A DNA stretch of 64,000 nucleotides. Origin: Hydrolagus colliei. Its lineage: Eukaryota. The notes under the pieces are model-generated. The model did not search any database. It had not been told where the DNA came from and worked only from the letters and a program-made list of their open reading frames with translations. Position numbers and translations under genes: made by a program. The stretch covers positions 5,704,001 through 5,768,000 of the forward strand of contig CM068763.1 in NCBI GenBank assembly GCA_035084275.1. The letters are read 5' to 3'. Positions 3,991-60,724 of this stretch are shown here, piece after piece (within the stretch, counting starts at the first letter, position 1; each line of letters starts with the position of its first letter).

Positions 3991-4264
3991 TCAGTTGCTC
4001 AGTCGATGTCTGATACATGAGGCAACCCATCTCTCTGCTTTAAAATAGACAAACCAGCCTGACAGTTCTACGTAATGCCACCCACACATGAAAATCTCCC
4101 CGTGTCTGGGATAGAATCCGCACGTCTACTTGAGGGGACAACAACCGCTTGCCTAATTGTGGAGGGTATTCAGTTGGCAAGACCCGGCCAGTATTCTAAT
4201 GGGCGGAAATTTTGGTTTGTGTGATCTGCTTTGTACTACTTCTGGTTTGATCTGTGTCACAGAA

Positions 4265-4328
4265 CAACACCAACATCGACAAAATTACATTTATGGAGTG
4301 CCTTTCACATAAGGAGAACGTCCCAAGG
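4265..4328 (-). mobile_element. Hairpin-only L2 tail micro-insertion with 7-bp TSD, in a CR1 3' end
   Basis: Flanked by 'cacagaa' at 4258-4264 and 4329-4335. The host continues as the minus-strand CR1 tail 'gaaggaggccatttggccc' to ~4470. Confidence 0.85.
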
Positions 4329-4914
4329 CACAGAAGGAGGCCATTTGGCCCATTCGTGCCTGTGCCAGGCTCTTGTAAGATCCAAATTATCCATACTAAT
4401 TCCACTTCCCCTGCTCTCTCCGCATAGCCGTGTAAATGTGTCCTCCCCAAATATGTTCCACTTCTCTATGTTATGTGGAATGGCTTTGGTGACACCAGGT
4501 GTCAATGTGATTTATTTATAATTGCAATTGGCCAAAGTCACTATGTAATGCTTACATGAATTTCAACCCAAAGGGAGGTAATTCATAGATTCAATATGAT
4601 TGTTACATCATGTGTCTTATGAAGTGGAAGAATTTCAGATGATAATATTTTGGTCTGAGCGTCGCCAGACTTCTGATTACAGAGAGAAGCAGATTTGAGC
4701 ATCAAACAAGTAGAAATTGGCCTCATGCAGCTGACATTCTGATGCAGTTGCTGCGCTGATTCATAGAATCTTGTGTCACGCTCCCTCGCTCACTCACTCG
4801 CTCAACCTGCAACAATGATGGCAGTCAAACCATTTTCAAAAGCTCCAGCAGAGTAAACCATGGTGCCAAAGTGTCTGAAACCAGTAGATAATTATCCATT
4901 GGAAGACTGCTTAT

Positions 4915-7065: not shown

Positions 7066-7099
7066 TTTCTCCAGAAGTTGTGTTTATATGTTACCCTTC

Positions 7100-7550
7100 A
7101 TGGAGAATAATGTCTCGGAGCATTTTGCAGTAATGGAGTTGGACAATAAGCAAAGAAGGAGAGGTGAGGGAGATGACTGTAGACATGGTCGATGATGTGG
7201 TTCTTCAGATGGGATTTTAAGACAGATATGGAGGACATGATTCGGAGGAATAGAGAAAGGGAATTTCAGAGGGTAGAGGAGTGATTGCAGAAGGCTCAGT
7301 CCTAAATGATAGCACAGAAAGGGCTGCAGGAGGTGCAGCAATGCCCAAATATGTCAAGCATTGGGGAAAAAAGAAGAGCAACAACAAATTGCAGTTATAT
7401 ATATTACACCTCATGCAGTGTAATATCATTGAGTGAAGAGTGTTCCAGAGTTTCAAGGCATAGTGGCTGAAAGAAGTATAGTGTAGGACTGGGGGGATAG
7501 ATATCTAGAGTGACAATGTGAGTGGTTGAGTTTATATCAGATATTCAATC
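7100..7550 (-). mobile_element. Degenerate L2 3' fragments
   Basis: Purine-rich reverse-complement L2 segments (gtgttccagagtttcaaggcatagtggctgaa) with an embedded (AAC) tail. Confidence 0.55.
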
Positions 7551-8659: not shown

Positions 8660-9560
8660 CCCATAGAAAAGAACACAGCCCTGGTCAAAGTCTCTAAAGC
8701 CATTTTAAACATCTGCCTCCTTGTGCTCCTTGACCTCTCTGCTGCCTTCGACATTGTCGATCACTCCATCCTCCTACACTGCCTCTCCTCCCAGCTCAAT
8801 CTTCACGGACCTGCCCTCACCAGGTTCGACTCTTATCTTTCTCACCGTCTACACTGTGTTGCCACCAACAGCTTCTCTTCCAGTACCCACATTGTCACCT
8901 GTGGTTTCCCTCAGGGCTCTGTCCTTGGCCCCATAGTTTTTAATATTGACATACTCCCCCTTGGCAGCATCATTCGAAGACATGGGATCAACTTCCATAT
9001 GCATGCAGATGGCACCCAACTGTATCTTTCTGCCTCTGCCCTCCACTCCAGGACCACTGCTGTCCTGACAGACTGCCTGTCAGACATCAAGTTCTGGATG
9101 TTAGCTAATGTTCTACAGTTGAATGTCAAGAAGACCAAGGCCCTCCGGATTGGTTCATGCCAGCACCTTCCCACATCAGGCCCTGGCAGCATCAACCTCC
9201 ATGGTTGCACACTCAACCTCACCAAGCCAGTCAGCAACCTAGGTGCCTTGTTCAATCTTAAACTGTTTTACCTCCCCCACATCCAAGCCAATTTGCTCTG
9301 CCTTCCCTCACCTCACAACTCTGCCCCCAACCTCTGGTATTCCATCCCACAGTCCCTCTGCCTTGCTCCCTCCCTAGCCTCCTGCAAGTCTTGCCTCAAG
9401 ACCCTCCTCTTTGACAGTCCCATTGGTCATCCCAAATCCCTTCCTTTCCCTCTACCCTCCCGATCCAGACCCCAGCTCAGGTCTGAAACATTGACTGTCC
9501 AGGGACTTTGGACATCCTGACATGAAAGGCGCTTTACATGTGTAATTTTATTGTTGTTCT
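8660..9560 (+). pseudogene. L2-clade LINE reverse transcriptase remnant with 3' UTR, 5'-truncated and internally deleted
   Basis: ORF 8456-9520 contains LLDLSAAFDIVDHSILL, GFPQGSVLGP, HMHADGTQLY (YADD decayed) and LQLNVKKTK. It jumps to the 3' UTR at ~9290 and ends in a type-A tail. Confidence 0.95.
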
Positions 9561-13731: not shown

Positions 13732-14038
13732 GTGGAGTTCTGTAGCTCAGTGGTTGGAGCACTTGCCTTGCAAGCGAGAGATCAGGATTCGATTCCCGAC
13801 AGTGCAAAACCTTGGGCAAGTTTCCTCGCTCCACACACCTGATAATAATCCCTAAAAGAAAATTGGTCATTTCAATCCATGACTGTTTGTGGGGCATTGC
13901 TATGCACAATCGGCTGCTGCATTTCACCCACAAATATATGGTCAATTCACTTTACAATATATTCTGTGAAGGGCTTTGAGATGTCTAGAAGATGTGATAA
14001 GGCTCTATATCAAATGCAAGGATTAATATTATTATTAT
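13732..14038 (+). mobile_element. Full-length tRNA-headed Deu-type SINE (~307 bp), inserted in a CR1 3' end
   Basis: Pol III A box (tagctcagtgg), B-box-like 'gattcgattcc', anticodon arm cttgc-cttgcaa-gcgag, core, L2-type hairpin and (ATT)n tail. Confidence 0.95.
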
Positions 14039-15348: not shown

Positions 15349-17714
15349 ATCACCAGAGACCAGGTCTCAACTCTGTATTTGCTCCCATAACAGATAAAGC
15401 CTCTCATTTTAAATTTAGTTTGAATGCGTCCTCATCGCGAGGCTTCCATCCATCTGTGTCTCACCCTGAAAGAGTTTGGGATCATGTGTGCAGATTAAAG
15501 AGCTGTCTTAGAAAGGCATGTGAGTGTGGTGAATGCTGAGTGGTATTGATCAGATAAGGGTCATTGGTTATTTCTAACATTGATAAAATAGCAGGTTTAG
15601 CATTGCAGTAAAATAATCATCAAACTGAGGCAACAGCTGTTGTTGTATCATAAAAGTAGCACCAATGTGAGGGTGCCGGCTTACGCGGGCTGGGTCAATC
15701 TTCTGGATCAAGTTTGGAGATGCACCTTGAAGGAGGCAAGGGAGAGAGCGAGGCAAAACAACAAAATTACACTTCTATAGCGCCTTTCAATAACAACAAC
15801 TTCAATTTATATAAGCGCCCTCCACACCGTACTGAATCTCAGAGCGCTTTCACTTTAGAAGGGCCATCAGGAACAGTTTATTGGCTCAATTTATTGTACA
15901 CTATCATTAATCTTTGCATTTAATATTGTGCCTTATCATGATGTCACAAAGCCCTTCACATGATTCACTGTAAAGTTTTGTGGGTGAAGCGCAGCAGCCA
16001 ATTGCACACAGCAGTGTCCCACAGACAGAAATGGCGTGAGTATCCAAATTGGGGGATTGTAGACCAGTACACCATGAAATCATGGAGTGATTGGAATACT
16101 CGTGAATTGGCAACATTTCCCTCTGACTGTCACTGAGATAGTCGATAATAGGAGCTAAATGGTTCTCCAGAGAGAGGTAGAAAACATTAAGGCGATGGAG
16201 CATGGCTGACCATTCACACAAACCACCCCACAGCAGCAGCAATGCAATGCCGCATGGAGCAGATTGTCTTCCCATCTTGTTGGCTGCAAAACTGCTGATA
16301 GAGTGAGGAAAGTGACCTTCTTGCCCTTACCCTCACCAGCCTCCACCCCTCCTGATCCCAACCCCCTGCTTGGGTTCAAATCACTGATTGTCTAGTGCCT
16401 TGGGACCTGAAAAGTGCTGTGTAAATGTAATTTGTTGTTGTTGTTTTTCTTGTTGAGGATCCAAAGAAGAAGATTCTGAAATCGGAGACAAGATAATCCC
16501 ATTAAAACCATGGCGAAAAGCAGTAATTTATAACTTTAAGCAGAACAGAGCAGACACAGATAAATAACCCAGGCTGTGAGAATGACAGGTTGCTTGGTAA
16601 TCTGTCACCATTAATGGCAAATCTAGTCGCCATAGGAACACATGACAATTTTTTTTGTGCATGTGTTATTAATTTTAAGATCTGTCTACCTTATGATTTA
16701 GGTAGATGTAAAGTGGCCACCATGTCACTGTTATTTCAAGGAAACTTGGGACTCTTTCTCCTCTATTTTCCTAGCTGATTTTCCCATCTTCATCCCAATT
16801 TACCACCAAATCTAATTAAATCGGATTTGCGCTTCATTGTTGTTCATGAAACCTAACTGGCACAGATTAGCAGCAGTGTTTGCTTAGATTACAAGTGTCA
16901 CTTCATTTCCAATCAATCTTCTTTTGTAAAGCTTTTCTAGACCTTGTGATGTGATGGCTGCAAGTTATTGTATTATTAATAACATTTATGTTAAAAATAG
17001 AACTTTGCTGATGTTACAGAGACTTCAGTGTAAGACTGAACAAAGTCACAAAACAAGCAGCTGTGGACTGCCTTGTGAGCAAGGTCTACTCATCTTCTCC
17101 TAAATCAAAATCTATGTCAAGAACCTTTTATCATAAATAAAAACTTCGGGCAAGAAGGATGTTTTGCAGAGAAAACGTTGATCAACAAAATGCATCCATT
17201 TCAGAGGCAGCTCTGAGCTGCCAGCTGTTCTCAGCAGAACTCATTTTGAAGCTTATTATATGGTCAGATAATGTGTAGAGTGTCTCTGACCTTTAGTGAG
17301 CTCATTCGTTTCCAGTATTCCTTCTCCAAGCCCTAGACACATAATTTCTGAGGTAAATTGAAGTCAGATTGTGAGTTTGAGTGTCAACACAGTCAAAGTT
17401 TCTGTGATGAGAAAAGGATATTCTCCGATACTGGGTCACAGAACGGTCCTCCTGCTTCTCCCAGTTTCGCAATCATCTAGACAGGGTTCACCTGCAATAA
17501 TGTTGACATTAATCTATTCCTTGACCAAATCATTGGAGAGCGAGTGCCTTTTTTCAAAGGAGATTTATCTGAGATATACAGATCGCAAAGCTTTTTCTTC
17601 CATTGCTAGGTTACCACAACACATTTGTGTTTTCCTCTTTCAATGTCAAATAATTTCCCCTCTTGGTTCCTATTAACTCTCTGTAAAGCCAAAGCTTGTT
17701 CAAATCCTGAACAC

Positions 17715-19535: not shown

Positions 19536-21959
19536 TGTGCACAAAACGGCTGCCGCATTTGCCAACAAATCAGTCACTACATATTACGTTAAAGCCTGTG
19601 AAGCTCTTTGAGACATTCTGCTGACATGAAACGGGCTGTATCGAGTGCAAGGATTATGTTTTTTTTCACATTATTTTACATGCTGCTGAATTCTTACAAA
19701 CACACAATCAGTTAGTCAAGGAATGTTACGCTTGAATCAGGATTTCTATAAACTGAAAGTAAAAATAGCCAATTTTAAATCTGAGTCCCACAGCCCATTA
19801 ATCATTCATCCAGCAATTTTGTGGACGTAATGTCTCCCAGAAAACACTGAGCAAAACACATTTCTTCATCATAATGATTACGCTTCTAAAGCGAACAGCT
19901 TTTTCTATATTGTGCGTCTTGGAAGCTTATTGTATTGAGTGGGTTTCAAAGTTCTTTTGAGGCATACATGCTTGGATGAGTAAATATTTTGCAGTGGGAG
20001 AAAAATAGGAAAGGTTTTGATCCAGTGCAATATTCTGTTCAATAGGAGGAAATTGGAAGATGTTGGTGCACCAGAAAGTTAATAGTCCTACATTTGATAC
20101 AGCTCTTCATTGCGTTATTGAAACACCTCAAACTGCTTCACGTAGGCGTTTGAGGTGTTTCAATAACGGCAGACAATTCATGCAATGTCCCACAAACAGC
20201 CATAAAGAAAAAGTACATTTTCTGTTTTTTGGGGGCATTGTTGGCCATTACACCAGTGGAACTCCCTTCTCTTGTTAAATAGTGCCACGGGATCCTTAAC
20301 ATCTTTCTGAGCAGGTGAACAGAACTTCAATTTAATATCAGAAGGTGGCACATCCAACCATAAAATCACATAATCAAAACAACACTCCCCAGCACACCAT
20401 TAGAGCTGTAGTAGAAGCTTTATTGGCCTCCAGCCTTCCAAAGGTTAGAGAGGACAAAAAACAGCCAGGATATTTTCTCCTGGTGGACTGTCTAGTTACT
20501 GTGCACCTATATTGCACAGGGAGAAATCACGCTCTCTACAGTCGAGTAACCTGCTGACACTACTGAACAACATCATGTATTTCTATAAAATAAAATATGA
20601 GTCTGGGGAAAAGGTGAGGAGACAGCATATGGACAGAATAGGTGTAGAGGGATCAGCACACTTCCAGGTGAAAGATGGAGGGAGATTTCACTGAACGATA
20701 AAATAGAATGATGGACTCATATTTGTTGCAAACTGCTCAGTTGCTAAGTCACACCAGACAGGTCCAGTTAACACAGTCCCTTGCAAGAAAGCAAAGTGCA
20801 TTGTTCAACCCGCTCTGAACATTGTAGGACAAAATGTCCTTCCTATTGTTCAACAGGCTCTTTCTCAAAGAGAGAACTTCCCTCTGCGCACAGCTCATTG
20901 TCCAATCAGCATGGCACACAAATGTCCCTTTTGCAGACATCCTGAATTATTCACATTAATCACGATAATGGAACAACTGTTCTATGTAACGTCCCTGTTC
21001 CCAGCTGCTGATCCATCTACGAATGCTTTTTTTGATGCTTGAATAAAATGTATTACGCTCCTAATTTCCTGTTCTTTCTGTTACTTTACTTTTTCTTCTG
21101 TTAGCTACAGAACACTGAAAAACAATTTGCATTTATATCGTGCCCCTTATGCAGAATAAGGTCCCAAACTGCTTGACACAGGTGGAACGGGACGCCAACC
21201 TGGGGAAAGGGAGTGACCATAGGCACTGTCAAATAAGATTGTCTTCAGGCACGACTTGAAGCTGGGGAAGGAAGGGACAAGGCAGAGGGATACAGCAAGA
21301 GTGTTCCAGTGAACTGTTCTATTCAGGAGTCCAAAAACCTAATGCAGTCACTGAAGTCCTGAGAAAGGAGAGTCAATCTCAAAACATGAGGCTCCACACA
21401 AAGGTGCTTAAACGTTGGATAGCCATTTGGATGAGACCATCAGTCATGGTACTCTCCTTCAGAGTTTATTTAATCTTGTTTTTCTGCCCTCTTCACACCT
21501 GTACTGGGGGCAGAGATTCTTCCCACTCAGCTCCCGTTAGCCGTGAAAGCCTGAAGCCCTGACAGATACCCCTAACTAGACAAGCAGTGTGAGGCTTACC
21601 AGACAACAATAACTTGCCTTTATATAACACCATACATTTGCAGCACTTAACAGTGGCACAACATGATGAAAGCACTTTCAATGGAAGCTGTGTGGTTGTA
21701 GCTGGTTAAACTCCAACTTGTGTTTAATACTCTCTGGAAATACGTTCCTCCAGGAAGACAGAGCACATTGCATTTCAAACACATTTCGAACAGAAATTTC
21801 CATGTGTAGGCGGCATACATGGAACTCTCACTTTGCTTTGGATACTCTTAAGCATTGTGTGTTTCCACGTGCGAGAGGTATCCAACCATCCCCCCACCAA
21901 CACCTCACCTCCCAGCAATGTGGAGAGATTTAAAAGCCGAAAACAGAGGTGTTACAAAT

Positions 21960-22335
21960 AGCTTTTGATCTTACCTCTGGGTCAGAAGATTATTGGTTTA
22001 AGGCCCTACATCGGACTTCGTCTCACAGCCCAGGCTGACACACTGGTACAGTACTGGGGGAGTGCTGGGCTGCATTATCAGAGACTTCATCGTTGGACAA
22101 TGCATCGAAATGACGTGCTTCAAGTGGATGTTAAGCATCCCATATGTTATTCAAAAGGAGAAGCAGTTTCTCCCAATGTCCTGGACAACCATCTCATAGA
22201 TACAAAATGGTCATCCGTATCATAGTTTGTTGACTGCCTACAAAGTGCAAAGTCACTTCACAGTAAATCCTTGAAATGCCCAGGGACGTCCTCCTGATGT
22301 GAAAGGCACTCTACGTATGTAATTTTGAGTTGTTG
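21960..22335 (+). mobile_element. Old DeuSINE
   Basis: 'cctctgggtcagaagatt...ggctgacacactggtacagtactgggggagtgctg...aagtggatgttaagcatcccat...gtcctggacaac'. Confidence 0.8.
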
Positions 22336-25449: not shown

Positions 25450-25770
25450 TAAGACCTGTGTTTGAATCCAGGCAAATTAACAACAAATTACATTTATAGA
25501 GCGCCTTTCACGTCGGGAGGACGTCCCAAGGTGCGAAACCTTGGGCAAGTTTCCTTACTCCACATGCCTGATAATAATCTCTCAAAAAAAACACAATAAT
25601 AAATTGATCATTTCAATCCATGACTGTTTGTGGTACACTTCTGTGAACAATTGGCTACTGCGTTTTGCCCACAAATATACAGTCAATTCACTTTACAGTA
25701 TAATCTGTGAAGCGCTTTGAGACATCTAGAATACGTGGAAAGCGCTATCAAATGCAAGAATTATTATTAT
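25450..25770 (+). mobile_element. SINE with an antisense hairpin-only L2 insertion (~25475-25534)
   Basis: 'gacctgtgtttgaatccaggca', then 'aacaacaaattacatttatagagcgcctttcacgtcgggaggacgtcccaaggtgc', then 'gaaaccttgggcaag' through core and tail. Confidence 0.9.
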
Positions 25771-26222
25771 CGTAAGTGTGTCTATTCCTGTCGCTGATTC
25801 TCTAACCCAAAAAATATAATCTGTTATTATTTACCCATAAAATATACTCTCAAGGATCTTGAAGGCCTCAATCAGGTTCACCCTTGTAAGCCCATAACCT
25901 TGTCAACTCTGTCAGAAACATCTGACATGAACGGACTAGTAGGTCATTTGCTATAGTAATTCTGTCTGTCGCTGCAGCAATTCTACTTTACTTCTGACCC
26001 TCTGAATGGTGAAAAGAAATGAGAAAATGTGCTGAGAAAGTACCAGAAAAGAGAAATGAATTTCTCCCTGTGTCCTGGCCAACAATCCCCTAAATAAAAG
26101 TAGTCATTAACTTCAGAGCTGCTTGTGGGACGTTTCTCTGTCCAAGCTGGCTGCCATTGCCCACAAAACACACAGTCACTGCACTTTGTAGCAAATCCCG
26201 TGAAGTACTTAAGGACATCCTC

Positions 26223-26286
26223 AACAACAACAACAAATTACACTTATAAAGCACCTTTCACGTCGGGAGGACGTCCCAAGGCGCAA
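26223..26286 (-). mobile_element. Hairpin-only L2 tail micro-insertion with 6-bp TSD, inside a DeuSINE tail
   Basis: 'atcctc' at 26217-26222 and 26287-26292. Confidence 0.85.
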
Positions 26287-26832: not shown

Positions 26833-27961
26833 CAAACACTGCAAAGAACTGTGCACATGGTTAGGATCTCAACAAACAAGGCGATAGCGGACACCCGACA
26901 TACTTCTTCAGGCTTGACGGGAATCGACAACTGAAACAGGTTACCAGGAAGCCAGGCAGAGGTACTGCTCTGAAAGAGGGGATCAACAGGGTTTCATCCA
27001 TGGCTTTGTTTGATTCTGCGATGGCTGGAAGCAGGAAAGTCTGGATACGTAGAGCAAAGCACTCAGAACCTGAGAGAGAATGATGTGACTGAGATTTCTG
27101 AGATGATCTTTGTGTGAAGCAGAGCTATGATGACTGTGAGCAGTCCACACTGTAACTAGCAACCTCTACTATGGTCTCTGGCGATGAACCAACCGGAGCT
27201 TTCATCAAGATATTCATCCAGCACGACACAATTTACCCTGCCAGCTTTAGACCCGGCTTATTGAATTCTGTGTTCTAATAAACGAAGAGTGTCAGAGACA
27301 CAGGCCTAACTAATATAAATCTCCTAACTACGGATCCGATAAGGGATTAAGCACTGATCTTTCCTCAGAGACTTATAATCGTCTTGCGCAATCAAAGGCT
27401 CAATAAAACCCATTTTCCAGCAGTCAGCACCCTTACTTCATGTTGCCAGACTGTAGCTTTTACTCTGCACTGCACGCCCTGATGAACGGAATCTTTTGAA
27501 TCAATTGAAAATCCCAGAGCATTTTTTTTTCTCCCCCCACACACAGTGTACTCACCCTTGTGATTCAATTACTGTGGCTACAAGTTTATGCTTGCAGCAG
27601 GCACAGGAAAAGACAATATGTTGAAATGCTGTGATCAGCGATAGATCGGATGCTTTGTGTTGATTTTCTCTTAGAGTTATATTTATGTTGCCTTTTGATT
27701 TTCTCTCTTCCACCTCTTCCATCACGGATACTCATTGGGACTTTTGCCAAAGTGTTCTTTCTTCTGTTGTGAGACTGGAAACCGAGTTCTGGCAATGTTA
27801 ATCCATGCAGCTTGACCACCTATCAGGCTCCCATTGCAGGCTGCATCCCTACAACACTAACAACGATAACAACAACAACAAAATTATATTTGTAAAGTAC
27901 CTTTGATATCAGGAGGACGTCCCCAGGTGCTTCAACATATCCAGGCTTAATTACTCTAGTG

Positions 27962-28109
27962 AACAAAACACAAAATACTGCACATGCTGGAAATCTGGAA
28001 CAAAAACAGAGAGACGAAGGGTTGACTCACGAAACGTTGACTCACTTTCCTTTCTCCATAGATGCTGCCTGACTTCCTAGGTTTTCCCAGCTCTCTCTGT
28101 TTTTGTTTC
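27962..28109. mobile_element. Penelope-like (PLE) inverted terminal fragment with 13-bp TSD
   Basis: TSD 'aattactctagtg' at 27949-27961 and 28110-28122. Inverted arms 'aacaaaaacagagaga' / 'tctctctgtttttgtt'. Motifs 'aaatactgcacatgctggaaatct' and 'gacgaagggttgactcacgaaacgtt'. Confidence 0.75.
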
Positions 28110-28309
28110 AATTACTCTAGTGTCCTGCTCACCAGACTCGTCCATTCACAAGCTGTGGACCATCCAGAAATTTGCAGCCATGAAAGGCACTATATAAATG
28201 TAAATTATAATCTTAAATTTTAATGTCAATTAATAAACAGAGGGGAGGGCCTTCTATTTCAGCCTTCACAGAATATACTCTATTCTTCTTCTTCTTATTA
28301 TTGTTGTTG

Positions 28310-35659: not shown

Positions 35660-35927
35660 TGTTTTGTGCTCTCCGTTCCACAATCGGTGGCCATCACTTT
35701 AGCCACTGTGCCTGAAATTCTGGAACGCACTCCCTCAATCCCTCCACCATGCCTGCTTCTTGCCCATCTTGAAGTCGCACCTGAAGATCTGTCTCTTCAA
35801 CAATGCTTGCAGCCACTGCTCCCCTCCCCTCTCTCACCATATCAGCGCAGTGCCTCCGATGCTGTCAAGGTCTCTGGGATGCTACGTTGCATGAGGGGCG
35901 ATATATAAATGCCAGTTTTTGTTGTGT
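35660..35927 (+). mobile_element. L2 3' end (type-C tail)
   Basis: 'aattctggaacgcactccctc...gctgtcaaggtctctgggatgctacgttgcatgaggggcgatatataaatgcc'. Confidence 0.8.
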
Positions 35928-37815: not shown

Positions 37816-39410
37816 TCGGTTTGTAAATCCCTATTAAGAACTCTGAGATGCTACCGCGGGTGAAAGGCGCTATTTAAATGCATGTTGTTGCTGTTTTATG
37901 ACACAATGGTTGAGATTGTTACCGACTGAGCCAGGCTGGCACCTAAACATACATCCCCTGTAACAGAAAGTAGCTGCCAAACTCTGAGAGATAGATCAGT
38001 GGGACCAGGTTATAACAGTCAGTTTTGACACTTCAAATGATCAATTACTATCCAAACAGTTTAGTCTTTCGAACTCTTCCATGGAGATCAAAAGGTGCAA
38101 ATTCCAATTGGTTCAGCTAATAGGCATAGGTATTTCCACCTTCGAGAATAAAATCCAAGTCTATAAACACTGTATTCTCCCTAGAAGAGAGTAGGTGTTG
38201 AGGGCAAGAGCTAAGCAGCATTCCAATGTGTTAACTGGTCTGTTGACATATCAATGTGTCTTGAAGGCATCAACATATCCTCGACCCCATTAGCCTTAGA
38301 TGAGTACAGTGATCTGATCTAGATGAGCTGTGTGTTGTGCATTCACATAATGTATTGAACGATTAATTTCTTGACACAGTTGATAAAATAAATGAAGATT
38401 AATGCAGATTGTTGCAATGGTCTTATCCCAGGCGCTGTCATCTGCAAAGAAACACAAAGTTTAATATAAAAAAACAAAGTAATTAATACCACAAACGGGA
38501 AATAGAGTAATCTATCAGGAAAATTACTTGGGAATTTGAGATTCCAATGTGAACTGCCGGATTTAGGAGGCACAGAACACAAAGAATATGATTTTCTAAG
38601 TGTTTTGCAGAACCAATAAAACGTCTTCAGAATACAGATGTCTCTTCTCTCTGATTAATTTATTCAGAGTTTCATTCCTGGCAGAAGGAGAAAAGTTTCT
38701 TGGGTAAAGTTTGCAGTATTTTGTTAACACGTTCTTTGTGTTAACACAGGCAATCCTCAGAAAGCATTGTAAACTTTACGCTTTGTTCTGACTGTCATCA
38801 AACACAATCCTTCTGATCATGTGTGACTCGGCTGCGGAGTCCAGCATCAACACAATACTTTCCTGAAACACACTCGCTCATTCACTAACTGTAAAAACTG
38901 ACTTAGTGGCTCATCTGATCAGAACAGTACAGAAGGTCTGAGGATATTTGTACGATGGGTTTCCATTCCCCCTTCTGATTATTAATTCCTTCCCCCCAAA
39001 ATTGGTCACTGCAATAAAATCTCTACAATTGTGAACACCATATGGATGTTAAGTGAATCTGCCCGGACCACGATGTTCCAAAGCTTGATTGGAAAGAATA
39101 GAAGCCCCTTATTATAGTGCTTTATAAAAAGGTCTCAAAGCACTTCAGAAACCTTACTGAATGTAGTCTGTGATCTCAAAGTCCAGATAAACAGCTTGAA
39201 CCCATATAATCAGGCAGTGCCAGAGGTGAGATGCTGACAAACTAAGTCAGGCTGATCAGAGATTGATGACCTAATGCTTGAAGTTACAGATATCTATAAT
39301 AATAATAATCCTTGCATTTGATATAGTACTTTTCACGTCTTCTAGACGTCTCAAAGCACTTCACAGAATATACTGTAAAGTGAATTGACTGTATATTTGT
39401 GGGCAAAAAA

Positions 39411-41290
39411 CTAGCAAACAACAAAAAAAAACAGACTCCAAGAGTTTTTACAAATATATAAAGAGGAAAAGGCTATATAGGGTGAATGTGGGTCCATTAC
39501 AGACAGAGACTGGAAGAATTATAATAGGGGACAAAGACATGGCATTAAACAAGTCATTAAACAAGTATTTTTCTAGTCTTCACGGTAGAAGACATTGGAA
39601 ACATACCAAAAATAGAGGGGAATCAAGAAGACAATGCTAGCAAGCAACTTAGGGAGATTAATATTAGTACAGAGATGATAATAGGTAAATTGTCGGGTCT
39701 TAAAACTGATAAATCCCCTGGACCGGATGGCCTGCATCCTAGAGTTTTAAAGGAGGTGGCTACTGAGATAGTGGATGGCTTGTCTATAATCTTCCAAAAT
39801 TCTGTGGATACTGGAAAAGTCCCCATTGATTGGAAGATTGCAAACGTAACTCCACTATTTAAGAAGGGTGGGAGAGAAAATATGGGAAACTATAGACCAG
39901 TTAGTCTGACGTCAGTTGTAGGGAAAATTCTTGAGTCCTTAATAAAAGAAGTAGTTATGGGATACCTTGAAGACCATAAAAAGATTAGGCAGAGACAACA
40001 TGGCTTTACAAAAGGGAAGTCATGCTTGACTAATCTTTTAGAATTTTTTGTGGATGTATCCAGCAGGTTGGATAAGGGGGAACCAGTAGATGTGGTATAT
40101 TTGGATTTTAGGAAGGCATTTGACAAGGTGCCACACAAAAGGCTGTTACTCAAGATTAAGGTCCATGGGATTAATGGGAAAATATTAACATGGATAGAAG
40201 AGTGGCTATCGGGTAGAAAGCAGAGAGTAGTGATAAACGGGTCATTCACGATTTGGCAGGATGTAACTAGTGGAGTGCCACAAGGATCAGTGCTTGGGCC
40301 TCAGCTATTTACTATTTACATCAATGATCTAGATGAGAACATTGAATGTAACGTATCTAAATTCGTGGATGACACTAAACTAGGTAGCAGAGTGAGCTTT
40401 GAGGATGATGCAAAAAGATTGCAACAAGATGTAGATAGGTTAGGGGAGCGGGCAAGTAGGTGCCAGATGGAATTCAATGTTAGCAAGTGTGAAATTATTC
40501 ACCTAGGTAGCAAGAATAAAAGAATAGATTATTTTCTAGAGGGGGAAAAGTTAGATAGTGTTAGTATTCAAAGGGATTTGGGTGTCCTTGTACACCAGTC
40601 CCAAAAAGTTAGTTTGCAGGTGCAGCAAGCAACTAAGAAGGCGAACGGCATGCTAGCGTTCATTTCAAAAGGTTTAGAGTATAAGAGTAGGGAAGTCTTG
40701 CTGCAACTGTATAGGGCCCTGGTGAGACCGCACCTAGAGTATTGTGTGCAGTTTGGGGCTCCTTATTTAAAAAAGGACATACTTGCCTTAGAGAGGGTGC
40801 AGCGTAGATTCACTAGGTTGGTTCCTGGGATGAGGGGACTGACCTATGAGGATAGGGTTGAATAAACTAGGGCTGTGCTCTCCAGAATACAGAAGAATTA
40901 GGGGGGATCTTATTGAAACATATAAGATTCTTAAAGGGCTGGATAAAGTAGACACTGAGGGACTGTTTCCCCTGGTAGGAGAATCTATAACCAGGGGTCA
41001 CAGTCTTAAAATTAAGGGTCAGCCTTTTAGAACAGAGTTGAGGAAACATTTCTTCACTCAGAGGGTAGTGAATTTATGGAATTCACGACCCCAGAAGGCT
41101 GTAGATGCTCAGTCCTTGAACATTTTCAAGGCTGAGAATGATAGATTTTTGAAAAATAGAGGGATTAGGGGATATGGGGATAGGGCAGGTAATCAGAGTT
41201 AGGTGAGAAGATCAGCCATGATTTTATTGAATGGCGGAGCAGGCTCGAAGGGCCGAATGGCCTACTCCTGCTCCTAATTCTTATGTTCTT
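39411..41290 (+). mobile_element. CR1-clade LINE, 5'-truncated, ~1.9 kb, relatively young
   Basis: Continuous ORF2 homology from the 5' junction, a short 3' UTR with hairpin 'gggccgaatggcc', and tail 'tcttatgttctt'. Confidence 0.97.
39675..41202 (+). pseudogene. CR1 ORF2 reverse transcriptase domain, frameshifted near 40855, no endonuclease domain
   Basis: KSPGPDGLHPRVLKE, NYRPVSLTS, QHGFTKGKSCLTNL, YLDFRKAFDKVPH, GVPQGSVLGP, KFVDD (normally FADD). Continues in ORF 40846-41202 (TRGHSLK...FFTQRVVNLWNS). Confidence 0.95.
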
Positions 41291-43249
41291 AAAAATGCGG
41301 CAGCCAATTACGCACAGCAATGTCCCTCAAACAGTTGTGGTTTGAAAATGACCAATTTATTTTAGGTTTTTATGGAGGGACAGATAATTATTAGGCACGT
41401 GGAGTAAGGAAAGTTGCCCAAGGGTTTGCCCTGAACTGTCTGGATTCAAAACACAGGTCTCACGCTTGTAAGGCGAGTGCTCTAACCACTGAGCTACAGG
41501 ACTCCACTATGAAACCTGAATTACAGAAATGTGACAACATCCTGCCTCTTTCTCCTACAGTTTTAATAGTGGTCTCCATTAACCTGTAATATAATAATGA
41601 TAACAATAATAATAATACAAAATCAAAACAGGTTTCCACTGATTCAGTTACAAACCCTCTATAGAGTGTAGAAACAACTCGAATCTACATTGGGCTAACA
41701 CTTAAACCCACTCTCCAGGGAGCAGTGTATCAACTGTAAAAGCAGAACAACACAGAGGCAACAATAACGACTTGCATTTATATAGCAGCCTCCACCCTGG
41801 GCAGTGTCTCAAAGTGCTTGCAAGCGGGACATAGATTTAGGATTGCAAGGGGCAGTTTCAGGACACTCACCAGAAAGTATTTGTTTATATCTAGGTGACT
41901 GGACCTGGTTGTCAGTAAGGATGGTTGAGGTCAATATAACTTGAGAAGAGGGGAGAGGGGTGATCTTGAACAATGAGATCAAATGGGTCAAAGAACCTAT
42001 GAACTAATCTAATAATAACACTTGCATTTTGATATAGTGTCTTTGAGATATTTCAAAGCCCTTCACAGGATATACTGTAAAGTGGATTGACTTTTTTTTA
42101 TTGATTGTGATCTTGTGAATGTCCTGCCCCTCTGTCACTGAAACTCTCTCTGATCCACCATCCATCTGATCTCCCTCAACCCTCCAACCTCCCTCACCCC
42201 ACCCCACTCACCCGTCATCTTGGGCTGTTAAAGTCCTCCAGCAAAGATCGAATGGATATCAAGACTTAGATCCATCCTTATTTTGTGGAGACAATAACAA
42301 ATTGGACAAATTCATTCATTGGCTGTTATTTCACAGTAATTACAGTGCTTGAGAAAAATAAAACAAACATATAAAACTCAATCACTATTTGTTTACTCGT
42401 TATTTACTCTGAAACATTTCCTGTTTATCCACCAGGGCAGGTTATACCCTGGGGATAAGAGATAGCAGCAGGTCTGTGAGTGAGGAGGCACTGAATGAGC
42501 TGATTGGGAAGGTGAATATTCAGCAGCTCTTTTGCCTGAGGCTGTGTAAAGTCCAATGCGCTGGGATATTAAAATCTGATGAAGTCTTTCACTTAGGATT
42601 GACAGAACAAGACAAGCGGATACTGTAGCATAGCATTGTGATGTGAATGGAATTATAGTGTGGTAAACATCAGCCTGTTTGTTCAACTCGAAACATCCAG
42701 AGGCAAAACAAATATCCCCTAAAATGCCGGTGTTCTGAGGGCTGCCTCATAATCAAGGACGGGATAAACTGGGCTCTTCAGCCTTGTTCTGTAACATCTT
42801 AGAGGAGGCTCTTCAGAACACATAAAATCCATCCGTGCCTGAAAACCAGAGTTGGTACTTTTATACAACCACTGAAACTCCCAGCATCGTATGATTCTCT
42901 ATACACACTTGTGGACATTATGTGGGGATATCGGTGCACTAAATTATTGAATCGAATGCCTTAGTTCCTTGGTTTAGCTGCTCACCCCTCAGTTCTACTC
43001 TGGAGCATTAACCTAACCTGTGAGTAAAAAGTACCAATACTGGCCTCGATCCCAGAACCATCTGTTTCTGAGGCAGATTGGTGAATGTGCTGTCATTGAT
43101 TAGCTGCCACCTCAATATTCTCACACACACATACAAGCAGAACATGGTACGCTCATTCACACTCTTCTCCATAAATTGGTTGTCAGAATATAGACAGTGG
43201 TCATCTTTGTTTTTAATGTTGATTGAGGTGTTTGTCTGGCTCAATTGTT

Positions 43250-45522: not shown

Positions 45523-45789
45523 TAAGAAAAATAGTTTGCCACAAATTATGGATCACAATTAGTTACAAATAAGTGTTGGTCAACGGATCGAAGAATTTAT
45601 CCCACTAACAAACGTTGCAAAGTTAGTTCCAGGATTTTAATCATCAACCTCTTGGATTCTTGCTTACCCTCAAGCGTTCTGGTACACTACCCCACGTGAA
45701 CGGCGCTATATAAATGTAAGCTGTTGTTGTTTTTCTATCCTCTTATTGGTTCTTGAGTATCGGAATATTAATGATAATAACCTTTCCAT

Positions 45790-46160: not shown

Positions 46161-47893
46161 CTATGACTTCAATACTGATTTGATGAAGCCAATCTGTCCC
46201 CAAAACACAGAGATACAGTAGGAGCCACAGCAAGTTGGGAGATGGAGGTAAAGCAGGAGGTACACAGAGCTACAGGACTCCATATTTAGTACATCAAGAA
46301 TGTTTAGTACATGGAACCTGTTACACCAGTAAATTAATAGGCTTTTGAGGTCTCAGCTCACATGATTAAGCCAAGCCTTAGGGCTGCACTCATCCTGTTT
46401 TAGGGCTCACAGGCTCGAACGCAGCCACTGATCAGAATGGCAGATAGCTTCTTCAATCATCCGTAATATTAATTAAAAATGATACTCACTCTAAAGGTCA
46501 AATGAGTTAGACTTTTCAAGAGTCATCATATCAAATGCAAAGATTATCATTATAAATTAAAACAGCTTTGTATTTCCCTTAAGAATTAGAGACACTGCTC
46601 TGAGGTGGAATGTTACATGATATATGCAAAAAAAAGTCAGTTGATTACTTGGTTTGGTTCAGTCTCTCCAAAATCATTTAACATTCCTTTAGCAACTCAG
46701 CCAACATGGGAAGAGTACTCAATAACTTTGCCGTGAGGTATTTCAGCGAAGAATTAAAAAGGAAAAAAGACAAATGGATTCCTCATAAAAATGTTTTAAA
46801 ATATTGATATTAATATATTAACATTCAGATATTATGCAAAGAAATTCAAGCTTGTCACTTATTCTTCTCTATCAAAGACCCACAGGTTAGGCCAGGTGCC
46901 TTAAGGAGATTAATTTGTTGCAAATTGTGAATTGAACGATAATTAATTTTAACTCGGAAACATGATGTACAAATTAATTCAAATTCAAGGAAAAACATTC
47001 TTCGAATTGCAGGGAAATTTGTCTCTAGGATAGGAATTAAAGCCGTCGTGAGAGCAGGAACGTGGCAGATCAACACTGTACCTCAACATGAAAGGCAGGT
47101 TATGGCGATTATGATAATGGTACCTCATGTATTTCGATAATTAAAAATAATCCTTACATTTGGATCAGAGCCCTTCAAATTGGGAGGACATCTCAAAGCT
47201 CTCACAGGATTGACTGCAAAGTAGATTTTTAAGCCAACACGGCAGCCAGTTTGCACACAGCAATGTCTCACAAACAGCATGACGTGAATGAACAAGTAAT
47301 CGCCAGTATCAATCTAAACCCAGGAGTGATGGCAAATCCCATTTCTCTGCGATATTCCTCAATTAGAGGAGTTCTAACACATCAAACGTTTTGAAAGATG
47401 AGTTCAAAAACAGTTTTTAGCAATTTATTGATGTGATTATACATTTCTTATAGAGATATATATATATCATGGCATGGTGCTGGCTTTCAACCAACTTTGG
47501 ATACAACACTGGGAAGACTAGGATGTCCATTTGAATTGAGTTTATATGAACTTTCAAAAGGCATCTGACAACGTGCCATATAAGAGACTTGTAAGGAAAA
47601 TATTAAAGGGCCAGTGGCAGCATGGATCCAGAAATGTGGCTAGGAGACAGAAAGCAGAGATTTGTGGCGAACAGTTGTTTTTCTGACTGGAGAGAAGTGT
47701 TCAGTGGCATCCCCCAGGGATCTGTATTGGGACCACTGCTCTTTTTAATATATATATATGATCTGGACTTGGCTATAGGGAGTACAATTTCCAAGTTTGC
47801 AGATGATACAACGTTAGGAAAAGTAGTAAATGGTGAGGAGGATAGTAGCAAACTGCAAGAGGACATCGACAGAATGGTAAAATGGGCAGACAA

Positions 47894-47950
47894 CAACAAC
47901 AAAATTAGATTTATAGAGCACTTTTCACGTCGGGAGTATGTCCCAAGGCA
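47894..47950 (-). mobile_element. Hairpin-only L2 tail micro-insertion with 7-bp TSD, inside the CR1 RT
   Basis: 'cagacaa' at 47887-47893 and 47951-47957. Removing the insert and one TSD copy restores KWADKWQMKFN. Confidence 0.92.
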
Positions 47951-48655
47951 CAGACAAGTGGCAGATGAAGTTTAATGTGGAGAAATGTGAGGTGATGGAT
48001 TTGGAGAGGAAGAATGAGGAGAGGCAATGTTGGCTGGATAATACAATCTTAAGGGTGGATGGATGAAGAAACAGAGAAACCTGGGGGTTCATGTAAATAA
48101 ATTGTTGAAGGTGGCAGGACAGGTAGATAAGGCTGTTAAAAAAGCATACAGGATACTAGGCTTTATAAATAAGGGCATAGAGTACAAGTCAGAAAGTTAT
48201 GATTAACCTGTATAAAAGGCTGGTTAGGCCTCAGCTAGAGTACTGTGTTCAGTTCTGGGCACCACACTTCAGAAAGGATGTTAAGGTATTGGAAAGTGTG
48301 CAGAGGAGATTTAAGAGGATGCAGGAATGAGAGACTTTGGTTATGAGGAAAGGCTAGAGAGGCTACGATTATTCTCATTGGAGCAGAGAAGGTTATGTGG
48401 AGACCTAATAGAGGTTTTCAAAATCATGAATGGATTCGATAGGGAAAACAGGGAAAAACTGTTTCCACTGGTGGGTGTGTCAGTGACCTGAGGTCACAGA
48501 TTTAAAATAGTTTCTAAAAGAAACAGAGGGGAGCTGAGGAGAATTGTTTTCACGCAGTGAGTTGTTCAACTCTGGAATTCATTGCCTGAAAGGGTGGTGG
48601 AGGCCGATTCGATAGCAACTTTTAAAAGAGACGTGGATAGTTATTTGGAGAGGAT

Positions 48656-48722
48656 AATACTAACAATGATCCTTGCATTTGATATAGCACTTTTCACATT
48701 TTCTAGACATCTCAAAGCGCTT
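48656..48722 (-). mobile_element. Hairpin-only SINE tail micro-insertion inside CR1
   Basis: 'ggat' at 48652-48655 and 48723-48726; the insert ends at 'ctcaaagcgctt'. Confidence 0.85.
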
Positions 48723-49954
48723 GGATGGGTTTGCGGTGTTATGGGGAGAGAAGCAGGGAATAGGATTGACTTCAAATAGCTTTTTTCAAAGAGCCGACAT
48801 AGACACGATGGGCCGAATAGCCTCCTTTTGTGCTGCAAAATTCTATGATTATATGATTTCAATTAAGGATGCCCTGAACGGGGGAGAGATTGAAAGAGAA
48901 GTTAAGAGGCCGACGCTGCTTTCCTATAAAGCTTGGAAAATTGCCCATTGGAAATGTGACCTGGGGAAGGCTTTGTGAGATAAATGGAAAGGACAGGGTA
49001 TTGGCAGTCCAATAAGACTACTTAAGGTGTCCAATGAATCATGATAGAAAGTACCTGGCATAAGAAATCAGCTGAGGATAATTGGAGAGAGTGAAAGACT
49101 TGGAAAAAGAAATCAGTGTGGATGATGAGGATCTTTTGCATTGAAGTCAATGGTTGAACAAGATCCAGAGGTTTGGTGAAAGGACATACAGTGTAATTCA
49201 CAGGCAAATAATTATGTGAACATTGTGTCTACTGCACACACTATATAAGGATTGCAACTGCAAAGTGCTAAGAAATTCCCACGGCTGAGCCTGTATGAAA
49301 AGGTCACATTAGCAATCAAGGGTGCAGGGGAAGAGTGACTAACCTGTGGTTGTCAGAGAAAAGCTGATGGGGATTTGAAGGCTACGACAAGAGCACAGGC
49401 CAGGCATGGGAGGTGGCTGAAAGAATGATTAGCGCGATGTTAAATAAGTGCAGGGGCTATTGATTGGGAGGACAGACCTGGTGTCCATGTAATTAGGGAG
49501 GAAGCATTGGGGGTGTGGGGATCAGGTAGAGATACTGCTGCCTAGTGGCCATTTGTTTGTATTACAATACATTGCAAATTTATATTTTTAGGTAGCAACT
49601 TTCACATCAGGAGAACACCCTAAGGCACTTTACACAGTCTTTAGAGTAGAATGTTAGACCATATTACATAGTCTTTTATGAAGAATGTTAAGTTCATTCT
49701 GAACACTACATATTGCAGCAATAATTTACTGCCAGAGTTAATTTACTCCAGAGTCAAATTATGGTACATTACAAATTTTACTGCAGTATCTTCCTGGATC
49801 TTATCATTTAATACCGTTTAGGACTGCATTATTCCTCACTTCCTTATTGGTCTGTTCCACACAGGACTATTCTGTACCATTCAATATTAGTCTACTTCAT
49901 ATAACACCATTGGAAAAAAATTACAATCTGTGCCATGTTAATTAGTTAGCTAGT

Positions 49955-50930
49955 TAATTCCACATGTATGCAGATGACAGACAACTCTGTCTCTCCGCTT
50001 CCACCCTCAACCCACGTCTACCAGCATCCTGACTGCCTGTCTGTCTGATATCAAGTCCTGGACAAGGGACATCTTTCCTCAGCTGAACATCAGCAAGACT
50101 CAAACCCTCCTGATTGACTCATTTCCACACCTCATACGCTGGCAGCATCAGTATCCACAGCTGCACACTCCATCTCATGAAGCCAGTCAGCAACCTGGAT
50201 GAATTGTTTGACCCTGAAAAGTCCTTTCTCCCCCACGTCCGCGCCATGACCTTCCACCACCTCCCATAACATTGCCAGGCTCTGCCACTGCCTCTCCCCT
50301 CAGGCTGTTGAAACCCTCACCCATGCATTCGTCACATCAAGGCTTGACTTCGGAAACTCCCTTCTCATCGGCCTTCCCAGCTCTTCACTTCTCAAACTGC
50401 AGATTATCCAGAACTCTGCAGCTCGTGTCCTCCAGCTCACCAGGCTCCGTGAACCCATCACTCCCACCATTACCAGGCACCATTGACTCCCCATCCCCCA
50501 GAGGATCAAATTCAAGATCCTCATCCTCAGTTTCAAGACCATCCATGGTCTTGTCCCCTCCTATCTCTCTAACCAGCTGACTCTACCAAACTGCCTGCCC
50601 CCTGCATTCAGTGGGCTCCGTCTGCTCCATGTCTCCCATCCTACCATCGGCGGCTGGGTTTTCAGGCTCTCTACCCCCACACTCTAGAACTCCATCCCAC
50701 AGCGCCTTCAACTCACTTCCTCCCTTGTCTCCTTCAAGGCCAATCTCAAGATCCTCCTTTTCGATCATGCCTTCAGCTGCCCTCCAACCTCTCTCCCTCT
50801 CCTTCCCCTTCCCCGCCCCCCCCTCCCCCCCCCCCCCCCCATGCTCAGGTTTCGACCCCTGACTGTTCAGCAGCTTGGGATGTCCTCCTGGTGTGAAAGA
50901 CGCTCTATAAATGTAATTTTGTTGTTAATT
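49955..50930 (+). pseudogene. L2 LINE, 5'-truncated (HMYADD motif to the 3' tail)
   Basis: 'cacatgtatgcagatgac' (HMYADD), LNISKT, THAFVTSRLD, KLQIIQNSAAR, QRIKFKIL, then a type-A tail. Confidence 0.95.
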
Positions 50931-52145: not shown

Positions 52146-52631
52146 TTGGTCACTCAATCCATGACAGTTTGTGGGACCCTGCTATACACAATTGGTTGTT
52201 GTGTTTCGCCCACAAAATATAATAATAATAATAATCCTTGCATTTGATGTAGCGCTTTTCACTTCTTATTGATGTGTCAAAGAGCTTCACAGAATATACT
52301 GCAAAGTGAATTGACTGTATATTTGTGGGTGAAATACTGCAGCCAATTGCTCACAGCAGTGTTTCTGAAGGCTGAGGTCAAATGGGCTGTGGGCCTTCTT
52401 CATCTTGTCGATAATAATAATAATCCTTGCATTTGATATAGCGCTTTTCACATCTTCAGATGTCTCAAAACGCTTCACAGAATATAGTCAATTCACTTTA
52501 TAGTGAATATAGTCAATTCACTTTATAGTGAATATAGTCAATTCACTTTATAGTATATTCTGTGAAGCACTTTGAGATGTCTCAATGACATGATAAGGCG
52601 CTAGATGAAATGCAAGGATTATTATTATTAA
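52146..52631. mobile_element. Rearranged SINE cluster (plus copy with two minus tails) and a 25-bp tandem repeat
   Basis: Minus tails at ~52221-52365 and ~52411-52485; 'aatatagtcaattcactttatagtg' about three times; the plus tail ends at 52631. Confidence 0.85.
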
Positions 52632-54739: not shown

Positions 54740-54965
54740 AGTGTTTGTGTTAGTATTTGTACGCATGACCGTGTGAATATGTGTGGGAGGAGCTTTGGGA
54801 TGGCCTCCCAATGTGAAAGGCACTATATAAATGTAAATTTATACATTCCATTGAGCATGTGTATTTGGCTGTGTGGTGCTTGTGTGCACAATAGTGCTTG
54901 TACTTGCAAACATGTGGGTATGCACAATCACGTAAGAGCGTGTATATCAATGTGTGTGTGCAAAA
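54740..54965. repeat. Degenerate (GT)-rich tract containing a hairpin-only L2 tail (~54790-54840, plus strand)
   Basis: GT/GC-rich alternation around 'gagctttgggatggcctcccaatgtgaaaggcactatataaatgtaa'. Confidence 0.7.
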
Positions 54966-55300: not shown

Positions 55301-55480
55301 ATAATAATAATCCTTGCATTTGATATAGTGCTTTTCATGTCTTCTAGACATCTCAAAGCGCTTCACAGAATATACTGTAAAGTGAATTAACTACATATTT
55401 ATGGGCGAAACACGGCAGCCATTTGTTCACAGCAGTGTCCCACAAACAATCATGAACTGAGTTACCAAATTATTATTATT
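55301..55480 (-). mobile_element. SINE, 5'-truncated
   Basis: Tail and core present. Confidence 0.92.
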
Positions 55481-59737: not shown

Positions 59738-60724
59738 AAGTTGTGGATGTGTGTAATAACCAAATAAAGAAAGGGTTTCATGAGGGAAACAAGGGTGAAA
59801 AGGGGGTTTGTGCTGGATGCCTCAGGGGACCAACTTGGGATGGGATGCCTGCTGTACATAATTAGCTTGTATTTGCAGACTCGGTGCCAGATAGAATACG
59901 AACAGAGAAGTGAGTTTCTCCTGGTGTACAGGCCAACAATCCCCCAAATAAAATTCAACAAAATTCAACCACTCTGAGACACTGCTCTGCATGAAGGGCT
60001 CTCTATCAATAGAACATGTTCTTGTTGATCTTTCACATGGTGGTTGTTTGTGGCGCATTGTTGTGCCCAAATTGTGTGCCGTGTTCACCTGTTAAATTCA
60101 AAGTCAGTTTTGTGAAGTGTTTTGAGACGTTCTCCTGAAATGCAAGGATTATTATTATTATCAAGTGGTGCAATTTGTGGGTAACCCCGAATCCATGCGC
60201 AATATCTGCCGGATCTTGTAGGATCTTTTTGCAACAAGCTGTAACCTTCACTGTCCAGGTGATGGGAACAATGTAGAAAGTCTAACTCCAGCTCTCATAA
60301 ATTATACACAGCTTCTTCCGATCAGTTGAACCAAGCCAGAACCGATTTGCCCACTGTATCACTGCAACTAATGTCACAATAAATCATTTTCTACTGAGGA
60401 GACAGTCAGTTGAAGAGCAAGAGGAATGGCTGATATTCCTGAACATGGACAGATTGTACTTGGTAACACCTTCACATTTTGCTATCCCTCTCAGCCCCCA
60501 TTCCCAGCTCGGTTTCTCTCTGCTCAACTGATGACGGGTCAAGGAGCTGCAGGCTGCTTTCTCACCTGTGTCGTGAGTTGAGGCAACTTTGTGCTGGGTG
60601 CTAAGAGACTTCACTTAATAATATAGATATGCTGCTGTCTGAGAAAGTGGTATTAATACAAGCTAATAATCTCAGCCTGGCTTGTCCATATAACCGAATT
60701 TATTGGGGGAAATAGATGCTTGAT

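Follow-up and report, generated by a model that had tools for sequence, protein, structure and literature searches.

The stretch analysed here, a 64-kb window that the sequence-only reading had picked for its hairpin pattern and to which all counts refer, is vertebrate DNA rich in repeats, among them CR1 fragments, SINEs with tRNA heads and elements that resemble L2. It contains a set of short copies that consist of a 3' hairpin and, usually, a simple-repeat tail (stubs; Table 1). The 3' ends of the stubs match the tails of long copies that encode a reverse transcriptase (RT) and the ORF2 C terminus upstream. Three hairpin types occur: type B, L2-like with a GTT tail; type C, L2-like with a GTT tail and another stem; and type A, that of a SINE, with an ATT tail. 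Upstream of the long type-B and type-C tails lies a C-rich 3' UTR, preceded by the end of the RT-bearing ORF. The best protein matches of the source RT upstream of one tail were Callorhinchus milii RTs (65% and 60% identity), as would be expected of a cartilaginous fish; the matches of the source RT, from C. milii and teleosts, carry no clade labels, and its identity to the CR1 of the window is 38% over 101 aa. We provisionally take the source families to be L2 from their tail architecture and motifs. A tail on the minus strand at 21600-21700 has the same type of end with a longer, differing upstream part, and may represent a partial duplication or else a fourth family. At 13737-13806 ARAGORN called a tRNA-Ala, which is no tRNA gene but the head of the full-length SINE.

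Table 1. Stubs, their CR1 host and copies of the source and comparison families in the window
Feature	Position	Strand	Remarks
57-bp L2 type-B stub	47894..47950	-	starts at stem foot; hairpin of two helices, then AT-rich spacer and (GTT)n tail
Left 7-bp TSD copy, CAGACAA	47887..47893	+	4 bases overlap the tail repeat
Right 7-bp TSD copy, CAGACAA	47951..47957	+	
Decayed CR1 host	47607..48850	+	RT fragment to 3' end, ends approximate; holds stubs 47894 and 48656; Pfam RVT_1 on 47607-47972
SINE-type stub	48656..48722	-	ATT-like tail, 2 bases upstream of stem; 4-bp TSD at 48652/48723; spanned by host paralogue at 37.5-37.75 kb
Type-B stub	26223..26286	-	2 extra 5' bases; in hairpin loop of older SINE; 6-bp TSD at 26217/26287
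Type-C stub within type-B tail	15790..15846	-	6-bp TSD at 15784/15847; 3-base microhomology at 5' junction
Type-B stub in SINE head	25475..25534	-	no TSD; 2-base microhomology; about 2 target bases lost
Type-B stub fused to CR1 3' end	4265..4328	-	joined by 3-4-base microhomology; origin of its exact 7-bp flanking repeat uncertain
Type-B stub, unnamed by the sequence-only reading	22277..22332	+	in older SINE hairpin of same orientation; 6-bp flanking repeat may be host-intrinsic
Type-B stub, unnamed by the sequence-only reading	27856..27931	-	no TSD; tail end approximate
Type-C stub	45672..45731	+	2-4 bases upstream of stem; at most a decayed 4-bp repeat
Type-C stub, unnamed by the sequence-only reading	59965..60026	+	in body of older SINE; no TSD
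Type-B-like stub without tail	54790..54840	+	no TSD at ends
Type-C short copy	41762..41819	-	doubtful 5' end, 2-3 or as many as 14 bases upstream; flanked by 4-bp repeat (41758/41820)
Type-C short copy	37836..37895	+	5' end 2-8 bases upstream (doubtful)
Decayed short copy	49586..49629	-	family and 5' end doubtful
Long type-B source-family copy	8672..9558	+	hairpin and tail as in stubs, preceded by RT fragment, ORF2 end and C-rich 3' UTR
Long type-B source-family copy	49853..50927	+	
Long type-C source-family copy	35673..35925	+	from ORF2 end to tail
Full-length tRNA-Ala-headed SINE (type A)	13736..14030	+	related hairpin, (ATT)n tail; comparison family

The stub at 47894-47950 is a true insertion with a 7-bp target-site duplication (TSD). 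It had been read as a 57-bp antisense insert in a CR1 element, and the exact repeat together with empty CR1 paralogues confirms this. Alignment of the CR1 copy at 40.3 kb to the site leaves a 64-column gap at the insert. Contigs in all four of four runs (8, 3, 4 and 2 contigs) skip exactly 47887-47950, with seven ambiguous letters, and the depth of these insert-skipping contigs indicates that they are paralogous CR1 copies and thus empty sites. As had been proposed, removal of the insert restores the CR1 reading, with KWAD on the left and DKWQMKFN on the right. At 39561-41200 lies a younger copy of CR1, in which 434 aa of the RT are open.

We searched the window with a profile built on the ten sites named in the sequence-only reading. 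It gave 85 hits, against 4 in the reversed window, none of which scored above 5.8 bits. At a cut-off of 7 bits 71 hits were retained, and 14, mostly damaged SINE tails, were discarded. The retained hits comprised 11 long type-B copies, 8 long type-C copies, 13 L2-type copies with a start near the foot of the stem, 29 SINEs, 7 fragments left unassigned and 3 halves of hosts split by stubs. Family models added one type-C copy (7078-7168, ending at about +45) and about 20 SINEs, nearly all long. The 5' ends were called by profile HMMs. An ungapped matrix served solely to flag doubtful ends, since a 1-base gap had made it score the long copy at 987 as short. Junctions at several sites were taken from blast pairs and the raw sequence. 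The hairpin unit was found at all ten named sites and a (GTT)n or (ATT)n tail at nine of them, the exception being 54790, which has no GTT tail. The sites had been described as one recurring unit; they fall instead into the three hairpin types. The 5' ends had been placed within a few nucleotides of the stem base throughout; the copies at 41760 and 37837, however, may retain 7-14 more upstream bases.

The stubs carry the marks of insertion. A flanking repeat of at least 6 bp was found at 6 of 16 short copies, compared with 11% of 240 controls with swapped flanks (p 0.006), although of these six repeats those at 4265 and 22278 may be host-intrinsic and that at 54790 does not abut the stub ends. 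Clean TSDs followed by resumed host sequence were found at 47887 (7 bp), 26223 (6), 15790 (6) and 48656 (4). The TSDs at 26217/26287 and 48652/48723 had been noted before; they are exact, and the host element continues beyond the stub. At 15790, said to have no clear TSD, we found one of 6 bp (15784/15847). For 4265-4328 the 7-bp repeat at 4258/4329 is exact as reported, but may not be a true TSD, because the host CR1 tail is not resumed beyond it and CR1 ends hold a similar internal repeat. Five of the best junctions show microhomology of 1-5 bases; at 4265 and 22277 the stub is joined through 3-5 such bases. According to the consulted part of PMC4245944, de novo ZfL2-1 inserts have TSDs of 1-8 bp with a peak near 5, and microhomology or extra bases at the joins. 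The mixture of TSDs, target loss, microhomology and extra bases seen here matches them. Loss of sequence from longer copies, which had been named as one outcome that would overturn the reading, is excluded for the best cases by the TSDs and by CR1 and other host paralogues that lack the insert. The contig pieces listed include no orthologous empty site and bridge only the 41760 unit. That site is filled in organisms A and B, the unit being of no greater length there, and its presence in a contig of organism B means that the insertion predates that split.

Several neighbouring structures were noted. The stubs at 26223, 22277 and 15790 lie within the tail hairpin of another element, a borderline excess (p 0.05). 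On the minus strand at 4265-4440 a CR1 3' fragment leads into the hairpin and tail of an L2, with 3-4 bases of microhomology at the join and no CR1 terminal repeat; this is possibly a tail-swapped chimera. An unrelated insert between copies of a 13-bp direct repeat lies at about 27950-28110, just upstream of the 27871 stub. On opposite strands at 52416-52625, two SINE 3' ends stand back to back. Three perfect 25-bp repeats from the region that precedes the SINE hairpin connect them, and by its looks the structure is a product of slippage or twin priming.

The hairpin is conserved. It has 7 pairs in the lower stem and 5 in the upper, with an internal loop between the two, and over 26 aligned sequences 88% of cells are paired, as against 30-68% in slid controls. 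Two-sided changes occur in 6 of the 12 pairs. None of 500 shuffles reached the paired share or the covariation score, a test that related sequences can beat by their relatedness. Taken singly, decayed copies mostly fold no more stably than shuffles, with z below -2 for one copy in 12. Rfam holds no family that matched the hairpin; its three matches in the window are all tRNA. In the consulted part of PMC4176376 the 3' ends of ZfL2-1 and ZfL2-2 are described as an upper and a lower stem followed by repeats, and ORF2p binds the stem-loop. By analogy, ORF2p probably binds the L2 hairpin of the window.

We then compared the positions of 5' ends, taking the first G of the lower stem as position 0 and -3 to +4 as the strict bin. 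Ten copies start in this bin (4272, 22278, 25478, 26226, 27871, 47892, 54790, 15789, 45672 and 59971); a loose set of 13 adds 49586, 37837 and 41760, which possibly start up to +14. For 47892 the matrix favours +8, but the extra bases belong to the host, because the empty sites carry them. Thus, among 40 L2-type tails 10 (strict) to 13 end at the stem foot and 19 reach more than 50 bases upstream, the others being doubtful. The 19 long copies end at +51 or further (30318 is censored by an N gap and 37071 is doubtful) and give a background of 0.0046 ends per base, from which 1.5 of the 40 tails would be expected in the strict bin. The ten observed are 6-7 times this background (p 3e-6). Few L2 ends fall inside the hairpin (2-4), which the stubs copy whole, and few at +9 to +50 (0-3). 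The end is family-specific, at about -1 to +1 for type B and about +2 to +4 for type C.

The sequence-only reading had claimed an excess of 5' ends at the stem base, and had offered detection bias as an alternative. The excess is real in the window. We planted pieces of the 19 long copies in reversed sequence. Down to 20 bases into the hairpin, 40-nt stubs included, 57 of 57 were recovered, so the peak is not a product of detection; recovery fell deeper into the hairpin (52/57 at 25 bases, 39/57 at 30 and 16/57 at 35). A smooth genome-wide distribution, with this window an outlier picked for its pattern, would be a rival explanation. The window is one among very many scanned, the bin was chosen post hoc and five ends are doubtful. 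Moreover, 9 of the 13 copies of the loose set are those on which the earlier reading was based, and the 4 new ones alone give p 0.007-0.06. Against this, when all 10 doubtful ends are counted against the peak, p is still 1e-5; correction for 69 bin placements raises it to 8e-4, and removal of two strict copies as well to 0.017; two families show the peak independently, and detection is flat. We therefore consider a chance or selection effect quite improbable, and the peak at the stem foot very probably real throughout the genome. We found no description of hairpin-only L2 inserts or of a sharp stem-foot mode in the literature searched, which was largely open-access; the consulted parts of PMC5135761, PMC5499810, PMC2653535, PMC2666801 and bioRxiv 10.64898/2026.01.13.699120 do not mention such a mode. 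L2 tails, their recognition and 5' truncation are already known, and the sharp mode itself may have been noticed before.

The SINE of the window, presumably SacSINE1-like, has a related hairpin, paired to the same degree, and provides a comparison. Only 2 of 19 truncated SINE copies end in the -3 to +8 bin, where 1.5 are expected (p 0.45). Set against L2, this gave Fisher p 0.003-0.008 (loose set) or, in the worst case, 0.015-0.06, and the contrast between LINE and SINE is thus suggestive, modest and not firm. The SINE may use another L2 partner, and there is one clean SINE stub, at 48656. A second predicted hairpin stands directly upstream of the recognition hairpin at 55303-55392 (minus strand) and in other SINEs, and is absent in both L2 families. 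In metagenome contigs the exact type-B pattern gave no matching stretch. A looser tail pattern gave none in genome and viral contigs, and in metagenome contigs found only an unrelated animal SINE whose tail is of this type, at 18 loci, about 12 of them distinct. None begins at the stem foot, and they serve here solely as a SINE comparison. The ends of this unrelated SINE have the same lower stem and spacer but a pyrimidine-rich repeat tail, and the tail type is thus found well beyond fishes.

It had further been suggested that the stubs could form a minimal, promoter-less class of retroposon. The excess at the stem foot stands, and either mechanism offered with it, namely termination at the RT-bound hairpin or use of a short processed hairpin RNA, may be at work; the step to a retroposon class is not supported. 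TSDs of their own and a uniform size would fit a self-propagating family. However, the stubs are of three hairpin types, each fitting a longer family, and they share no diagnostic changes. No Pol III promoter head was found in them, the three tRNA-like matches in the window falling elsewhere. Short and long copies appear to be of the same age, with divergences of 0.128 and 0.134 for type B and 0.193 and 0.224 for type C. The net short-long divergence was -0.002 (B) and 0.012 (C), with permutation p of 0.58 and 0.13 in a small sample, and one stub and one long copy have a loop-side variant in common. The stubs derive from two L2 families and in one case from the partner SINE, are as old as the long copies and form no separate lineage. 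They thus represent a mode of L2 truncation, parallel products of one process and not a self-propagating class. We give a separate family of micro-retroposons hardly any credence.

We see in the stubs ordinary L2 insertions that depend on the endonuclease and that begin at the foot of the recognition hairpin far more often than expected by chance. Since the ends lie at the 5' foot and the whole hairpin is copied, two stoppers are natural: an RNA exonuclease halted at the protein-bound stem, or a DNA nuclease halted at folded cDNA. Our tentative preference is for the first, and we put the proposal that trimming of RNA to the ORF2p-bound hairpin before reverse transcription causes the peak at a little short of an even chance. 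A 5'-to-3' exonuclease would, we infer, degrade the L2 mRNA within its own ribonucleoprotein and halt 0-3 bases before the ORF2p-bound stem. ORF2p would keep the 55-60-nt remnant, nick the target and, target-primed reverse transcription beginning on the tail repeats, copy the remnant to its end. Host repair would then join the stub cDNA, each stub being a dead-end footprint of an ORF2p-RNA complex. The family-specific offset of the ends is as that of a footprint would be. Pol III SINE RNAs are poor substrates for 5' exonucleases, and with these properties RNA trimming would explain why a peak appears in Pol II LINE RNA and no clear one in Pol III SINE RNA. That the 55-60-nt remnant is a routine template of retrotransposition and the source of a quarter to a third of L2 insertions in the lineage is conceivable, but on balance we lean somewhat against it. 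Pausing of RT before the hairpin was rejected as the cause of the peak, as it predicts ends at the 3' foot; a second peak at the 3' foot is possible, given that 25-nt inserts there are recoverable in just 16 of 57 cases.

The peak and the hallmarks would be the same if RT, working on full-length L2 RNA, copied the hairpin that anchors it and the complex then fell apart, leaving repair to join the cDNA. The microhomology and extra bases at the junctions resemble those of truncated ZfL2-1 inserts in the consulted part of PMC4245944, which describes microhomology as the usual mark of joining during interrupted synthesis. Microhomology is found at five of the best junctions, and truncation at the DNA level therefore fits equally well in this respect. 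Likewise, in the excerpt of bioRxiv 10.1101/014977 consulted, Alu truncations cluster near stem-loops and protein-binding sites, but they lie 3' of the obstacle, whereas the stubs end 5' of the hairpin. Loss of the anchor in mid-stem should also smear the ends, yet few lie inside the hairpin, where they are detectable, and the SINE has no clear peak. Release at the hairpin is thus unlikely, if a serious contender; a pre-trimmed hairpin RNA seems to fit slightly better, since an RT that pauses at the bound hairpin and terminates there should halt at the 3' foot or in mid-stem. A DNA nuclease could act on cDNA of greater length, whose synthesis may have stalled in the C-rich 3' UTR and which, having lost its RNA, is resected 3'-to-5' as far as the folded hairpin. 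Such resection predicts the 5'-foot position; a C-rich tract lies 15-70 bases upstream in both L2 families and not in the SINE, L2 ends at +9 to +50 are few, and the consulted part of PMC2666801 reports that NHEJ factors shorten ZfL2-2 inserts. The predicted cDNA hairpins are weak, however (-1 to -9 kcal/mol, as against -6 to -20 for RNA, in 9 copies), and that of the SINE is no weaker than that of L2 although the SINE is without a clear peak, which makes cDNA trimming distinctly unlikely. Finally, the G/C-rich stem foot could simply be the first place where nascent cDNA anneals to the target end. The junctions at 4265, 25475, 22277 and 15790 use 2-5 stem-foot bases, and three stubs lie within related tails (p 0.05). 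But there is no microhomology at 26223, which has extra bases, or at 48656, which is joined directly; other G/C-rich spots just upstream have no ends, and the SINE has the same stem foot. We regard a microhomology hot spot as very unlikely.

The cause of LINE 5' truncation is still termed unclear in the consulted part of PMC2666801. With a sharp, family-specific end beside the hairpin that RT binds, the question narrows to three alternatives that can be tested against each other, namely RNA decay, release of the enzyme and trimming of the cDNA. The peak would define the smallest cis-element that L2 can insert, and would suggest that a good many L2 events escape both repeat annotation and neo-cassette assays. 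As three stubs lie within other tails and one is fused to a CR1 end, stubs also offer a route by which mobilization tails may spread into other repeats, which bears on the gain of new tails by SINEs. If trimmed RNA is indeed the template, LINE 5' truncation would in part be decided on the RNA, ahead of any reverse transcription, and the minimal L2 substrate would be on record in the genome thousands of times.

The known systems nearest to the stubs are the 5'-truncated insertions of ZfL2-1, ZfL2-2 and UnaL2. In the consulted parts of PMC4245944, PMC4176376 and PMC2666801 these have a two-part 3' stem-loop with a short repeat tail, TSDs of about 3-8 bp or a small loss of target, microhomology or extra bases at the 5' junction, and microhomology of the tail with the target. 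Unlike for the stubs, those parts do not report that insert lengths peak sharply at the stem foot. The ZfL2 assay construct carries a neo cassette in the 3' UTR (PMC2666801, part consulted), and stub-length inserts would therefore be unrecoverable in such assays. In cartilaginous fishes SacSINE1 and the CmiSINEs, with their partner L2-2_CM, are tRNA-Ala SINEs that share an L2 tail, as in the window (PMC5499810, part consulted); the stubs, in contrast, have neither tRNA head nor body. AluYa5 and AluYb8 resemble the stubs in having non-random truncation points tied to RNA structure and bound protein (bioRxiv 10.1101/014977, part consulted). Their ends, however, lie 3' of the SRP9/14 sites, as expected of a pause before an obstacle, and are broad and make up 16% of copies, whereas the stubs copy the recognition hairpin whole, end within about 8 bases and account for a quarter to a third of L2-type tails.
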